Positions 3,587 to 14,703 of a stretch of DNA of 20,000 nt are shown here, one piece after another (position 1 is the stretch's first letter; each line of letters starts with the position of its first letter). The notes under the pieces are model-generated. The model did no database searches, had not been told where the DNA came from, and saw only the letters and a list, made by a program, of their open reading frames with translations. A program made the translations under genes and the position numbers. This DNA comes from an uncultured virus (IMG/VR IMGVR_UViG_3300043105_000059) (taxonomy: Duplodnaviria; Heunggongvirae; Uroviricota; Caudoviricetes), in the IMG/VR virus record IMGVR_UViG_3300043105_000059. One strand, 5' to 3'.

Positions 3587-3790
3587 TTACCAATCATAAC
3601 TTTTAATATTTTTATTTACTTTATGGTACTTAAAATTATGGTTAGCAATTATACATTCTAATAAATAATTTTCAACATCTCCATCTCTAAGATAAAAATT
3701 AATAATATTAAATATATAATCTTTATTTTTAGAGTTGAAATGTTGACCTGTAGAATGTATAAATTGATAAAAGAAATCTTCTGCCGTCAT
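3587..3790 (-). CDS. Hypothetical protein
   Basis: 67 aa; ATGA overlap with the dut stop codon. Confidence 0.65.
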   Translation of the reverse strand: MTAEDFFYQFIHSTGQHFNSKNKDYIFNIINFYLRDGDVENYLLECIIANHNFKYHKVNKNIKSYDW

Positions 3791-3975
3791 TTATCCCCAG
3801 TATGTCCGAAACCTCCAGCACCTCTTGTAGTTTCATCAAGTGAATTTACAGGAACCCACTGAATCTTAGAAACTTGCTCTAAAGTAATTTGAGCTATACG
3901 ATCTCCATGACGTACTACAAAATTATTATCAGGATCAGTATTTATTAAAATAACTCCAATTTCACCGCGATAATC
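3787..3975 (-). CDS. dut: dUTPase exon 2
   Basis: DYRGEIGVIL (motif 3, second half), GDRIAQ (motif 4), RGAGGFGHTG (motif 5); joins exon 1 in frame to give GCIDA|DYRGE, 172 aa spliced. Confidence 0.95.
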   Translation of the reverse strand, partial: DYRGEIGVILINTDPDNNFVVRHGDRIAQITLEQVSKIQWVPVNSLDETTRGAGGFGHTGDK

Positions 3976-4232
3976 CATTTATGTTATCCTAAAGACTCTT
4001 TATTCTTTAGTTCTGCAGTTTCATTAGTTATATCTGCAGGTCGGACTATATCTTCTCCAACAATATTTATAATTTGTTGGAGCAGGGCACTCGTGGTAGC
4101 ATTACTATCCTCGCTAAGGACTCGGCTACTAGTCTCTGAACCTTCAAGAGTATTACTACTCAAGCTTGGCTGCTGATTGTCCACCTCTGGAGTTTCCAGC
4201 AATTCACCCTGTTTTAAGACGCCAATTATCGC
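3976..4232 (-). ncRNA. Group I ribozyme catalytic core (IGS, P3-P9)
   Basis: Canonical P/Q/R/S elements, extra helices between P7 and P3' (GTAGC/GCTAC, TCCT/AGGA), P9 CTGCAG...CTGCAG and CTAAAGA...TCTTTAG, terminal G. Confidence 0.9.
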
Positions 4233-4973
4233 TTTATATTTTTCAGATCGTTCATGTGCTTTAGTATTATGGTATGTAGTATGTTCAGAACGTGTTAGTA
4301 TTTGAAGATTTTCTAAACGATTGTCTGTTTTTATTTCATTTATATGATGCACATCATATTCATCTTTTAGAACAATCCATCCATTAACATTCTCAAAATA
4401 CTTAGGATCAAACTTATCATGATTTCTTTCAATTACTAATCTATGCTGTCTAACTCTAGATCCTTGAACACTTTTATCACAGGGTTTTGGATGTCCTGGA
4501 CAATACTCTAACACGTAACCTAAATTAGAAATTGTTTCTTTACCCTTAAAACTTGCATTTTTATCACCAGTAAGTCCATATTGATGATTATTTTCTCCTA
4601 AATATGTAGTTTCTCTTAATTTGTTACTACATTCTTTACTACAACAAATTTGCGTTTTAACTTTTTTTATTCTACTAGGTTTCGCATAGAATTGGTTACC
4701 GCAAATAGGGCAAGTACAATTTAACTCAGTCTTTTTTCTAAATAAAGCTGAGCAAGTAGTGCTACAACATTGATAGGTCTTTGCACGACTCGGAGTAACG
4801 TATTCTATTTTACCACAATAAGCACATATTACTTCTATTTTATCTACAGCATTCTTTTCATTCGGTTTTCCTTTACTGTGTTCATCCGAACATTGTTTAC
4901 AACAATATTTTCGATGAGCACTTTTCTTTCCTAAGAAAGTTTTTCCACAATTTAAACAAATATATTCTACCAT
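3984..4973 (-). CDS. Intron-encoded HNH homing endonuclease with three N-terminal Cys-rich zinc-finger repeats
   Basis: CxxC...CCxxxC three times; VRQHRLVIE...DVHHINEIKTDNRLENL HNH motif; ATG at 4973 (MVEYIC) preferred over the TTG at 5006. Confidence 0.9.
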   Translation of the reverse strand: MVEYICLNCGKTFLGKKSAHRKYCCKQCSDEHSKGKPNEKNAVDKIEVICAYCGKIEYVTPSRAKTYQCCSTTCSALFRKKTELNCTCPICGNQFYAKPSRIKKVKTQICCSKECSNKLRETTYLGENNHQYGLTGDKNASFKGKETISNLGYVLEYCPGHPKPCDKSVQGSRVRQHRLVIERNHDKFDPKYFENVNGWIVLKDEYDVHHINEIKTDNRLENLQILTRSEHTTYHNTKAHERSEKYKAIIGVLKQGELLETPEVDNQQPSLSSNTLEGSETSSRVLSEDSNATTSALLQQIINIVGEDIVRPADITNETAELKNKESLG

Positions 4974-5067
4974 ACTAATTTTTTTAATATGGTTAAATAT
5001 AGACAATTTTATTGGAATAACCTAATAAAAATAATAAATTGTGTAGTAACTGTTAATATATAATTTT

Positions 5068-5397
5068 AGCGTCTATACAACCTGGCGTGTTAAGAACAGT
5101 TATACCGTGTTTAAGAGCTAATCCGCTACGAGGTCTTACTTTTATTTCATAACCTTCTGGAATTGCAACGAATAAACCAGTAGGAATAAGTGCTCTACCT
5201 CCGGGACGGATAACCACAGCACCACCTTCTGTATAAAATTGATTATCTAAGATACAATCAACTCCTTTAACATTAAGTATTCCATGAATATCTGCTCGCA
5301 CATCCATACCAGCAGAACCATCGGTTTCATAACTAGGAAGTGGATTATTCCATTGTTCATCATAATATTGCTTTTGCTTTACTTTTACTTCTACCAT
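5068..5397 (-). CDS. dut: dUTPase exon 1
   Basis: GSAGMDVRA (motif 1), LIPTGL, RPRSGLA (motif 2), NTPGCIDA (motif 3, first half); the unspliced frame stops 4 codons into the intron. Confidence 0.95.
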
Positions 5398-11421: not shown

Positions 11422-11608
11422 AGTCGTGCTCTTCTACGTATTCTTTCATACCTTGTATAACAGTTTCTGACATAAAAGTTTGCCCTACTAACAAGCCATG
11501 TAAAGCTTCTAGTATATCAGTAACTGAACAATCTTCGTAAGCACTTTCCCATGAAAACTTATTACTACCTATTTCTAGTGTTAATTTAGTCTTTCTATCC
11601 TCGTTCAT
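11408..11608 (-). CDS. Hypothetical protein between nrdD and nrdG
   Basis: 66 aa; ATGA overlap with the nrdD stop and overlap with the nrdG start. Confidence 0.7.
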   Translation of the reverse strand: MNEDRKTKLTLEIGSNKFSWESAYEDCSVTDILEALHGLLVGQTFMSETVIQGMKEYVEEHDYELS

Positions 11609-14600
11609 AGTTCTTTTATATGTTTAACTCGTTGTTCGACCTCCTGTTGCTTACCAACGTTAAATGACGTCTTGTAGTCTCCGGTTAAATAACCTGTTAC
11701 ACGGCGTAATCGCTTGATATTTTTACTACCACACATAGGACAAGTATCATTCAATTCATCAATATAACCACAGTCTTGACAAGAATCATTTGGTACATTA
11801 ATGGCAAAGTATGGAATATCATGATCCATTGCATAATTAACAATCTCTTCAATAGCTTCTGGATTATGCTTAGTAGAAGCAGGTAATTCAACATAAGTTA
11901 TACAACCTGCACTACTGAAACCAGTAAGTTGTGATTCAATTTCAATTTTCTCAAATGGAGTACATTCATGCCATACAGGTACGTGCATACTATTAGTAAA
12001 GAAATCACGTTCTGTAATTCCTGGAACTTCACCAAATTGCTTCTTAAATTTCTGCATTGCTGTGTAACACAAATTTTCAGCAGGAGTATAATAAACACCA
12101 AAATTAAGTTTATAAGCTTCTTTGAATTCACTGCACCTCTTCTTAAAGAGAGCTTCTAATTCTTTAGCTTTATCCATAATTTCTGAATCAGTATGGTCTT
12201 TACCGAAAATAATTCTCAAAGCTTCTGATAATCCTAATTGACCAATAGCTAAAGTACCATGTTTTAATGCTGAACGAATACCTTCTTCAGGTTTATATCC
12301 ATACATTACATTATTTTGATACATAAACTTAGCTGATGCAGCATCTTGACTACATATCCAATCAAATCGTTCAATTAGCATATCTTTTGCTTCATGAATC
12401 TTAGTATCCAACAATTCAATAAATTTATTCCATACTAAATCCTTGATATTTATATCTGCATTATCCATATTAGATATAGCTTGCAGTTTAGAATTCATTG
12501 CAAGTGTAGGAAGTATGATTGTAACAGGACAGATATTACCTCTACCATCTTTAAGTTGACCAAAACCATTAATATCCCAGCCATTCGCTGTCCTGCATCC
12601 CATTGTACTAAAATAAGTGCGAGGATCGTTTATATCATACCCTTCATTACCAGACCAATCTACATTGGCATAATTAGGGTATAACCTAAGACTCGTAACC
12701 TTAGTAGCTTCTTGGAATATATCATAATTCGGATCTCCAGGTTTTCGATTAACACCTTTCATTAATTGAACGATACAGCACGGAAAAATCGGAGTGCTAT
12801 GATGGCTACCAATACCATTCTTACTTACTTCAAGTAAAGCTAGACTAATAAGACGTCCTTCAGGTTGTGTACAAGTACCATAATTAATAGAAGTGAATGG
12901 TAATTGATTACCACTTCTACTTTGTAAAGTATTTAAATTATGATACATACCTTCAACAGCTTGATGAATTTCTCGTTTAGTCATATCCAAAGCATATTCA
13001 TAAGAATTGGGATGCTCTTTATACAAACTATCCTCTATAGACAAATCTGTTTGATCATACTTCTCATTACGAATATGGTCAATATACTTCAATCCAGTTC
13101 TGTAGTGCTTATTAAAAGATAGTCTTACATAAGGAACCATAGTCCAATCTAGATGAGTTGCAGACACACCACCAAATTGTTGTAAACTTTGTACTTGGAA
13201 TATTACAGCTAATAATTGAAATGCTGTATTAACACTCTTAGCAGGTCTAACATCAGTTTGCTTTAGCTTAAACCCGTTAGTAAGTAAGTCGTCTACTGGT
13301 ATGCTCAAACAGTTTCCTGTTACCATACATCCAGCCAAAGTAAAACTGTGAGTTTCTGGAGCTTCAACACACCAAGTTACTTGTACAGATCCAGCCGTTA
13401 TTTTATCTAACCGCCATGGTTTATTTTCTTGCTGTTTAACACATAGTTGAAAATCATAATAAGTAACATCTTCTTTGTAATTAGTAGATTTTACATGCTC
13501 TCTTTTCGACCAAACATGAAACCCTGCAAGAGGTGCGGCAAATTCAATAAATTCTGCTAATCTACTATCAGTTGTAGAAATAGTATTATTTGCTTTACAC
13601 CCATCTGCTGAAAAATAGCCTAAGAAAATACTAGCAATAGCATTTTTATCTAGAATATTCCAAAATTTACCTTCAAGAAAATTTTGTTTATAAGATCCAT
13701 TACCTCTAGTATGAAGAGTAATATCTCCATTACTATGATGTTGTCGAATACTATAACCAGCTTTTAAGAAATTACCCAAGTATTCTACTTTATCGGAACA
13801 TAGTCTTACATTCATTCCACTGTTTGTAATTCTACTTTTATCTTTAGAATACATAAAGTAATCACAACCATCGCCTAATACAAATCCAAAACACCATAAA
13901 GTATTGTCTAATATAAAATCAGTTGTACTTACAGGCGTTAATATTAGTTTATCACCAACTTGTATATTATCAGTAATATCCCCATTACTTAAAATCCATC
14001 TATGATTTCTAGTACAGGTGACAGTTTTCTTAGTAATTCCAGCACTAAACTCTAAAGTGTACATTTTTTGTTTCTCATATTGATGTACCGTAGCAAATTC
14101 CCAATCTCCATTTTTATTTAGAATTTCTACAGGTTGACCGTCTGTAAAACTGTCAAAAGTTCTTACACCTCTAGAAGTTACAAACTTAGTATCATGGCTA
14201 TAACAGTTGTGCATCCCCACAGCGTAAGAATCCAAATCATGAATGTATATTTCATTATTTTCATGATTATGCTTAGCCATTTCAGACATACAATAATTAA
14301 GAGCATAATCTTTAGTTACAACTCTACCTGCTTCACCAATACGTCCACCAAATGAATGCTCGTCAATATTAGCATTTTGATTTTTTACATTAGAAGCTTC
14401 AAGTTTAGATTTAATGCCTTTAATGAGTTTATCTTTTTCAGCACGAAGCATCTTACGTTCTTCTCTATAAAGAATATAAGCTTTAGCTACATCTGGAAAA
14501 TCATAATCCATTAAAAGCTCTTCAACCTGATCTTGTATATCCTCAATATTAATCTCATCCCAAGTTTGTACTTCATTAGTTATTTCACTAATAACTTTAG

Positions 14601-14703
14601 AAGCATCTTCGTATCCACACTCTTTAAATGCTGCTGAAATCGCATTTATAATTTTACTCTTATCAAATTCAGCTAATGTACCGTCTCTTTTTGTTACTTT
14701 CAT
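11605..14703 (-). CDS. nrdD: Class III anaerobic ribonucleoside-triphosphate reductase with ATP cone, interrupted by an intein
   Basis: ATP cone VTKRDG..FDKSKI; IHDLD; MHN|CLSIP; QSRSGNQLPFTS; MGCRT; TPAENL; CxxC...CxxC; glycyl-radical motif RRVTGYL. Confidence 0.97.
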   Translation of the reverse strand: MKVTKRDGTLAEFDKSKIINAISAAFKECGYEDASKVISEITNEVQTWDEINIEDIQDQVEELLMDYDFPDVAKAYILYREERKMLRAEKDKLIKGIKSKLEASNVKNQNANIDEHSFGGRIGEAGRVVTKDYALNYCMSEMAKHNHENNEIYIHDLDSYAVGMHNCYSHDTKFVTSRGVRTFDSFTDGQPVEILNKNGDWEFATVHQYEKQKMYTLEFSAGITKKTVTCTRNHRWILSNGDITDNIQVGDKLILTPVSTTDFILDNTLWCFGFVLGDGCDYFMYSKDKSRITNSGMNVRLCSDKVEYLGNFLKAGYSIRQHHSNGDITLHTRGNGSYKQNFLEGKFWNILDKNAIASIFLGYFSADGCKANNTISTTDSRLAEFIEFAAPLAGFHVWSKREHVKSTNYKEDVTYYDFQLCVKQQENKPWRLDKITAGSVQVTWCVEAPETHSFTLAGCMVTGNCLSIPVDDLLTNGFKLKQTDVRPAKSVNTAFQLLAVIFQVQSLQQFGGVSATHLDWTMVPYVRLSFNKHYRTGLKYIDHIRNEKYDQTDLSIEDSLYKEHPNSYEYALDMTKREIHQAVEGMYHNLNTLQSRSGNQLPFTSINYGTCTQPEGRLISLALLEVSKNGIGSHHSTPIFPCCIVQLMKGVNRKPGDPNYDIFQEATKVTSLRLYPNYANVDWSGNEGYDINDPRTYFSTMGCRTANGWDINGFGQLKDGRGNICPVTIILPTLAMNSKLQAISNMDNADINIKDLVWNKFIELLDTKIHEAKDMLIERFDWICSQDAASAKFMYQNNVMYGYKPEEGIRSALKHGTLAIGQLGLSEALRIIFGKDHTDSEIMDKAKELEALFKKRCSEFKEAYKLNFGVYYTPAENLCYTAMQKFKKQFGEVPGITERDFFTNSMHVPVWHECTPFEKIEIESQLTGFSSAGCITYVELPASTKHNPEAIEEIVNYAMDHDIPYFAINVPNDSCQDCGYIDELNDTCPMCGSKNIKRLRRVTGYLTGDYKTSFNVGKQQEVEQRVKHIKEL
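13312..14205 (-). mobile_element. Intein (298 aa) with LAGLIDADG homing endonuclease domain in NrdD
   Basis: Starts CYSHDTKFV; block B TCTRNHRW; LAGLIDADG-like FGFVLGDG and FLGYFSADG; ends CMVTGN followed by C+1; removal restores GMHNCLSIP. Confidence 0.93.

Follow-up and report, generated by a model that had tools for sequence, protein, structure and literature searches.

Known dut introns and models of homing

The closest described system to the locus analysed here is the dUTPase gene (dut) of crAssphage (Carjivirus communis, BK010471.1), which we found by a search with the HNH protein. In this record dut is joined from two pieces, with KP06_gp34 annotated as 'putative Dut dUTPase, contains intron insertion' and KP06_gp35 as 'putative intron-encoded HNH endonuclease'. 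Two of nine crAssphage records have the intron and the other seven lack it at the same site. The available part of PMC7551546 describes the split of crAssphage dut, calls it recent and places it in nine contigs of one family; that part holds neither RNA structure nor splicing data on the insertion, whereas we describe 17 non-redundant loci at the site. Our literature searches found no paper showing splicing of the crAssphage dut intron. The term 'dUTP' is absent from the main text, as far as it was available, of PMC11878797, PMC12350094, PMC12880540, PMC11835236 and PMC3984707, while the accessible sections of PMC4299906 and PMC6145125 mention dUTPase and introns separately. The available text of PMC12880540 shows that gut-phage introns are by now routinely supported with metatranscriptomes. 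Two phages of the Suoliviridae, cr50_1 and cr1_1 (MT774375.1 and MT774380.1), have an insertion at the same site, and LMMB shows the same split-dut arrangement, annotated as fragments.

Two models of intron mobility are also relevant. The 'core creep' model is presented in PMC3073962, where the five examples in Table 1, which are not a census, have overlaps of 0-81 nt, with 20 nt for I-TevI, in the part of the paper available. Collaborative homing, in which free-standing endonucleases target the intron insertion site, is the subject of PMC3984707 (available part).

Here we analyse a stretch of 20,000 nucleotides (the window) from an uncultured virus, which sits in a 62.5-kb partial contig; all window features named below lie on the minus strand. 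Motif 3 of the dUTPase encoded in the window is interrupted by a group I intron (3976..5067; 1092 nt, last base G), which is identified by an Rfam match, a splice-pair scan, guide pairing and an RNA joint. We are highly confident that this is a mobile, splicing-competent intron of a crAss-like phage, and we propose homing by its HNH protein and regulation by a hairpin at the AUG of the HNH ORF. The intron type is already known from crAssphage, and the window provides a further well-supported example. As in crAssphage, the intron interrupts the same dut codon boundary, has a related core, carries a related HNH ORF in loop L1 and has its guide about 250 nt from the 3' end. However, crAssphage is a distant phage; the cores are 71-75% identical and the HNH proteins 40% identical, and its ORF extends 61 codons past the guide, compared with 79 in the window. 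The closest named cores are those of cr50_1 and cr1_1 (77-82%), with HNH proteins 48-52% identical. These two phages differ in that their ORFs end in P8 and that they are annotated without an intron feature. T4 td with I-TevI resembles the window in having a nucleotide-metabolism gene as host, an in-frame stop past the 5' splice site, a hairpin at the ORF start, an ORF 3' end that overlaps the core and a variable, apparently dispensable tail; the stop, the hairpin and the variable overlap also agree with patterns set out in PMC3073962. It differs in the nuclease type (GIY-YIG versus HNH in the window), in the location of the ORF (P6 versus L1) and in the overlap (20 nt versus about 249 nt).

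Indirect signs of the kind of phage come from its genome content. The first 19 kb of the contig is 16% coding with table 11 and about 100% coding with TAG as sense. It holds late-type genes outside the window (G000:C1:1219-19000, plus strand) that are open only when TAG is read as sense, one ORF having 3922 codons. ARAGORN found no tRNA in the contig. The weak named matches of the PD-(D/E)XK nuclease are to cr-phages (24-29%). Together, the TAG-open late genes and these matches point to a crAss-like phage that probably has recoded late genes. Crass-like phages of this kind are described in the available part of PMC7886860. In addition, nrdD (window 11605-14703) is interrupted in frame by a probable intein of about 298 aa: its first residue is Cys, it ends with Gly-Asn before a Cys, and it has two LAGLIDADG-like motifs.

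A split dUTPase gene and the anatomy of its intron

The upstream ORF (5397-5053) matches positions 24-70 of the Pfam dUTPase model and the ORF at 3978-3787 matches positions 71-129; the two exons together span the model (PF00692) free of gaps. Exon 1 (5068..5397) has 110 codons and ends with Asp109-Ala110 of motif 3, its last base being U. Exon 2 (3787..3975) has 62 codons, starts with Asp111-Tyr112 and carries motifs 4 and 5. Both exons are placed by the splice-pair scan, Pfam and the RNA joint at 5068 and 3975. The reading frame of exon 1 runs into a TAA stop (5053..5055) four codons inside the intron. The splice-pair script combined exon-1 ends from 5085 to 5056 with exon-2 starts from 4010 to 3956, requiring U before the intron, G at its end and an open frame. 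Fifteen in-frame pairs were found, and 5068 with 3975 is the only one that restores motif 3 exactly, with neither extra nor missing residues; the 14 alternatives were rejected, as they lose or add motif-3 residues. Removal of the 1092 nt gives a dut frame of 172 aa. The motifs are numbered in the conventional way, and the first Asp of motif 3 is catalytic. After splicing, the five motifs of the trimeric dUTPase (PF00692) lie in one frame, motif 1 of exon 1 being aligned to PDB 3mbq, and the predicted product is a trimeric-type dUTPase of 172 aa.

The first-pass annotation had proposed that the two dut ORFs join exactly when 3976-5067 is removed, that the intron lies inside motif 3 and follows the rule of U before and G at the end, and that it contains the P, Q, R and S elements with a core range of 3976-4232. 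All of this agrees with our results, with U5068 and G3976 as the boundary bases and coordinates that are exact. It had also suggested alignment to intronless relatives. The codon boundary is uninterrupted in 76 of 80 dut relatives from viral contigs and, among the matches listed, in 78 of 80 from metagenome contigs, where the other two loci gave no exon-2 match. Four of the 80 viral dut loci have the intron, two of these being copies of this phage. Thus, dut is an infrequent intron host, as had been claimed, but the novelty was overstated, since the intron is annotated in BK010471.1 and described in the available part of PMC7551546. The expectation that such genes are miscalled as fragments is borne out by cr50_1 and cr1_1, which each list two 'dUTPase' CDSs, and by LMMB, where exon 1 is called 'endonuclease'.

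The Rfam group I model RF00028 matches 4298-4013 with 70.3 bits (E 2.6e-16; gathering score 50). The internal guide sequence (4217..4232) pairs over 4232-4224 with exon 2 (P10, 9 bp) and over 4223-4217 with exon 1 (P1, 7 bp), which places a U.G pair (U5068.G4223) at the 5' splice site, while G3976 is the terminal base. This guide lies 845 nt into the intron. Its 7 + 9 = 16 bp with the exons compare with 7 for the second-best site, and none of 1000 shuffles reaches 16. Close to the 5' splice site no guide was found, the best local pairing there being 5 bp. The ribozyme core (4083..4211) comprises P3 (4211-4206 with 4088-4083), P4 (4201-4196 with 4176-4171), P5, P6-P6a, the R element (4141-4130) and P7.1 (4129-4096). 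It is followed by P8, the S element and P7 (4043..4082), with P7 formed by 4136 and 4134-4130 with 4048-4043, and then by P9, P9.1 and the terminal G (3976..4038; from the fold and the core alignment). The intron thus has the P3-P7 pseudoknot, P4-P6, P8, P9 and a G-C pair at the guanosine site, and the P, Q, R and S elements are all present. From established knowledge of group I cores, G4134-C4044 occupies the guanosine-binding position. P3 begins only five bases 3' of the guide, so P2 is lacking and loop L1 houses the long insert.

The structure is supported by an alignment of eight related cores, on which it was mostly derived with RNAalifold; P7 was placed by hand and P8 comes from a single-sequence fold. 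P3, P4, P6, P7 and P9 are 100% paired in this alignment, 96% of cells are paired overall, and both sides have changed at 29 of 52 pairs, including one in P7. Shifting the pairing partners lowers pairing to 28-45%. P7.1, the extra helix between P7 and P3, is present and covaries. This helix is a feature of subgroup IA (IA1/IA2/IA3). The anatomy of the dut intron, which lacks P2, is probably IA-type. We found no second intron of this core type elsewhere in the 62.5-kb contig.

We suggest the following sequence of events. The guide (4232-4217) pairs first with the 3' end of exon 1, where the U.G pair marks the cut, and next with the first bases of exon 2; the catalytic core follows directly. By the known chemistry of group I introns, with its two transesterifications, guanosine would attack at 5068|5067 and the exons would then be ligated at G3976. 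Ribosomes translating exon 1 of the unspliced RNA would halt at the TAA four codons into the intron.

The same arrangement is found across the 17 non-redundant introns at the dut site, including that of the window. U before the intron and G at its end are seen in 17/17, an in-frame stop occurs 2-16 codons in (17/17), and the guide lies 213-264 nt from the 3' end in all. Six exon hexamers occur, each with a matching guide: GACGCT/GGCGTC, GACTCT/GGAGTC, GACTAT/GTAGTC, GACTGT/GCAGTC, GACAGT/GCTGTC and GATGCT/GGCATC. The cores fall into three groups that are 46-60% alike between groups. A related core lies apparently at a different position in dut in L195:1412-2350, 7 nt upstream of the main site and inside an Ile codon, with a matching guide (by eye). 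The intronless crAssphage allele in L275:237-905 has a Trp codon, with G as its last base, at the position of the U-ending Tyr codon of the intron-bearing allele. It would therefore not provide the splice-site U, unless homing co-converts it.

RF00028 at E 0.01 missed 11 of 12 intron-bearing loci (L180, L181, L188, L267, L268 and six more), even those with cores 65-82% identical to that of the window; in another set of 17 scanned it matched 4 of 7 intron-bearing loci. The window core also has partial matches in L200:658-1085, Flavobacterium Fpv phages, PhiCrAssBcn14-18 and S-PM2 psbA, and most of those in the Flavobacterium and Bcn phages have no annotated feature beneath.

Probable splicing in RNA libraries

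Nine RNA runs from nine studies, from animal gut according to their records, contain part of the stretch. We compared the four with the largest shares (X1-X4), leaving out X5-X9 (shares 0.07-0.12). The RNA evidence consists of assembled contigs from RNA runs only, with a depth of 3-7, strandless and with no matched DNA run. Contigs in X1, X2 and X3, which come from separate studies, contain a single joint, 3975^5068, that skips the 1092 nt with no ambiguity. X4 has no coverage of the junction, and uncovered parts count neither way. The spliced GCT|GAT product that the first-pass annotation had called for is thus present in three of the four runs compared, in contigs whose joint could also come from an intronless DNA allele. 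Contigs in X1 also cross both unspliced boundaries (3946-4107 and 5013-5097), and intron-interior contigs are found in X1, X2 and X3. We conclude that the intron is very probably spliced in vivo. As a separate observation, a 151-nt RNA contig in X4 matches only the P9.1 region (window 3982-4014) and continues into other sequence; it is possibly a related intron in another gene.

Alternatively, the intron is real and the joined contigs are DNA or RNA of an intronless sister phage. RNA libraries may contain DNA, our comparison covered RNA runs only, and crAssphage populations have both intron-plus and intron-minus alleles. Against this, no differing letters are listed for the joined contigs, of 311 nt in X2 and 188 nt in X3, whereas 7 of the 60 bases immediately upstream of the site differ between the intronless and intron-bearing crAssphage alleles. 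The intron-interior contigs come from the same three runs as the joint, and both identical viral contigs carry the intron. A close intronless allele of this phage was not found among 80 viral and, for the matches listed, 80 metagenome dut loci. We consider this explanation improbable.

The RNA joint also bears on two readings in which dut is not rejoined by splicing. If the gene were split, its halves would be translated separately and assemble as proteins, exon 2 being read from an ATG formed by the last three intron bases just past the HNH stop. Both halves are indeed ORFs, the second has an ATG at 3978, and in the relative P0135 an HNH domain is fused to the second half of dut. But the break falls inside motif 3, an intact ribozyme core and guide covary with the exons, and the last three intron bases are TTG or AAG, not ATG, in 10 of 17 introns. 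With joined RNA contigs in hand, we regard a split gene as very unlikely. That dut is a pseudogene disrupted by an inserted nuclease gene is less probable still, to the point of being negligible. The split look of the dut ORFs is all that speaks for it, and it is contradicted by the joint in the RNA contigs, by two open exons that span the Pfam model without a gap and by the conserved ribozyme core.

The HNH ORF and its family at dut

The first-pass annotation had not included the ORF of 329 aa that fills the intron, a putative homing endonuclease gene (3984..4973). Its start is most likely ATG 4973. In the longer reading (340 aa from TTG 5006) this ATG is residue 12, and it is there that the alignment with the closest library protein (331 aa, 77%) begins. 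The ORF begins in loop L1, crosses the guide and the entire core and ends 8 nt before the 3' splice site. It encodes Cys-rich repeats, an HNH domain (HNH_3 match at 4281..4370, E 3.1e-08) and a core-derived tail. Residues H209, H210, N218, N222, H231 and H235 are invariant in 14/14 aligned relatives and are all intact in the window ORF. A search of solved structures gave no match for the nuclease family (best E 0.025). By analogy with its family, the protein may nick or cut intronless dut alleles, with the intron then copied in during mixed infection.

The ORF and the ribozyme overlap by about 249 nt, from P10 to P9.1, and the stop lies 79 codons past the guide. Two predictions of core creep, from the available part of PMC3073962, hold here: the length of the tail is variable, with stops 7-83 codons beyond the guide among the introns at the dut site, and the tail shows no sign of constraint at the protein level. 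The core-derived tail has a pN/pS of 0.77; the value is 0.50 in the nuclease domain, and the two remaining frames give 0.76-1.0. The idea that the core is dual-coding and under selection as protein was thus not supported. The ORF may have crept through the whole core, so that translation and ribozyme folding would compete on one RNA. A ribosome passing through the core should prevent that RNA molecule from splicing, so a hairpin at the start of the ORF has a likely role. Such a hairpin (4961..5001) has the AUG (4973) in its 3' arm and is a candidate translational brake (-14.2 kcal/mol, z -4.5, 1/200 shuffles, for a stretch picked after seeing the fold). It probably holds HNH translation low on the dut pre-mRNA, as for T4 I-TevI. 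The hairpin is not general: 3 of 9 relatives reach a z of -2.4 or below. A search for an internal promoter of the HNH ORF with the Bacteroidetes-type -7 motif was uninformative: the contig has 51 copies of the motif on its minus strand and 40 on its plus strand, with no exact copy in the part of L1 that precedes the AUG.

Potentially, the intron splices while its HNH protein has lost homing endonuclease activity, being in decay or a splicing helper, and the core-derived tail is functional. Loss of the ORF is known in the family: the ribozymes of L045:3280-3547 and L265:1370-2327 are 99% identical, without and with the HNH ORF, respectively. L045 looks like an ORF-less deletion derivative of an L265-like intron, with about 690 nt lost and the last ORF codons kept. 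In L195 the HNH ORF is broken, and 4 of 11 type-A introns have an ORF that remains open across the entire core. However, the window ORF is intact with all invariant HNH residues present, the ORF-less L045 indicates that a core of that type can do without the protein in cis, and both the relaxed pN/pS of the tail and its variable length argue against a functional tail. We find this alternative unlikely, and favor an active homing endonuclease.

The nuclease family is closely associated with dut. We collected 32 non-redundant HNH loci with at least 150 bits to the nuclease profile, dropping nine duplicates and using flanks of 1.5-3 kb; 14 rows are the profile's own seeds. The family is linked to dut in 27 of these 32 close loci: 16 are in dut introns, seven are fused to a nearly complete dUTPase and four are beside an intact dut, while five have no dut nearby. 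In the fused forms (L089:2486-3514, L090:2489-3484, L091:2468-3496, L094:2441-3451, L187, L190 and L272, as well as the library protein P0028 and 14 more), the HNH protein is joined in frame to the N-terminus of the nearly complete dUTPase. Among the best 150 library proteins, 48 of which were compared with Pfam, 15 have a nearly complete dUTPase domain, 4 have part of one and 27 have a core-derived tail. P0051 has the arrangement dut-HNH-dut, and P0135 the HNH fusion to the second half of dut already mentioned. Free-standing HNH genes over the 3' end of an intact dut (L095:2438-3235, L096:2378-3154 and L189:1477-2220) carry at their ends what is left of dUTPase motif 5, or of motifs 4-5 in the case of L189, as though an insertion there had duplicated the dut end.

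According to AU tests, neither the intron-borne nucleases (p 5e-18) nor the fusions (p 6e-6) form a single clade. For these tests six rows with no dut were excluded, and the grouping was fixed before we saw the tree, which is unrooted and gives no order of events. The nuclease of the window clusters (98/95) with three from another core group and one from its own. Since the groups of the nuclease tree cross the core groups, the ORF and the ribozyme appear to have been reassorted. Our title-level literature search found no paper on HNH-dUTPase fusions. We tentatively propose, with somewhat less than even confidence, that this is an undescribed HNH family specialised on the dUTPase gene that has switched repeatedly between introns with three divergent cores at the one motif-3 site, in-frame fusions to the N-terminus of an intact dUTPase, and free-standing genes beside dut that keep a residual dut C-terminus. 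As in collaborative homing (PMC3984707, available part), the family occurs in dut introns as well as beside and fused to intact dut, and an ORF-less intron occupies the site. The dut case is different in that the ORF-less L045 seems to have arisen by loss and is not a precursor, and in that the link of the HNH family to dut is known from sequence alone.

These findings have several implications for crAss-like phages and their introns. In databases, dut of crAss-like and other phages is found in pieces, and the Rfam model overlooks many such introns. The crAssphage dut intron represents an old, widely shared site and is not an oddity of one family. If the HNH proteins cut dut, they would form a natural series for the merging of free endonucleases with ORF-less introns, in which the window, with its whole-ribozyme overlap, is an extreme. 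The fused, adjacent and intron-borne forms of the nuclease, together with the 249-nt overlap, make core creep and collaborative homing testable at one locus.
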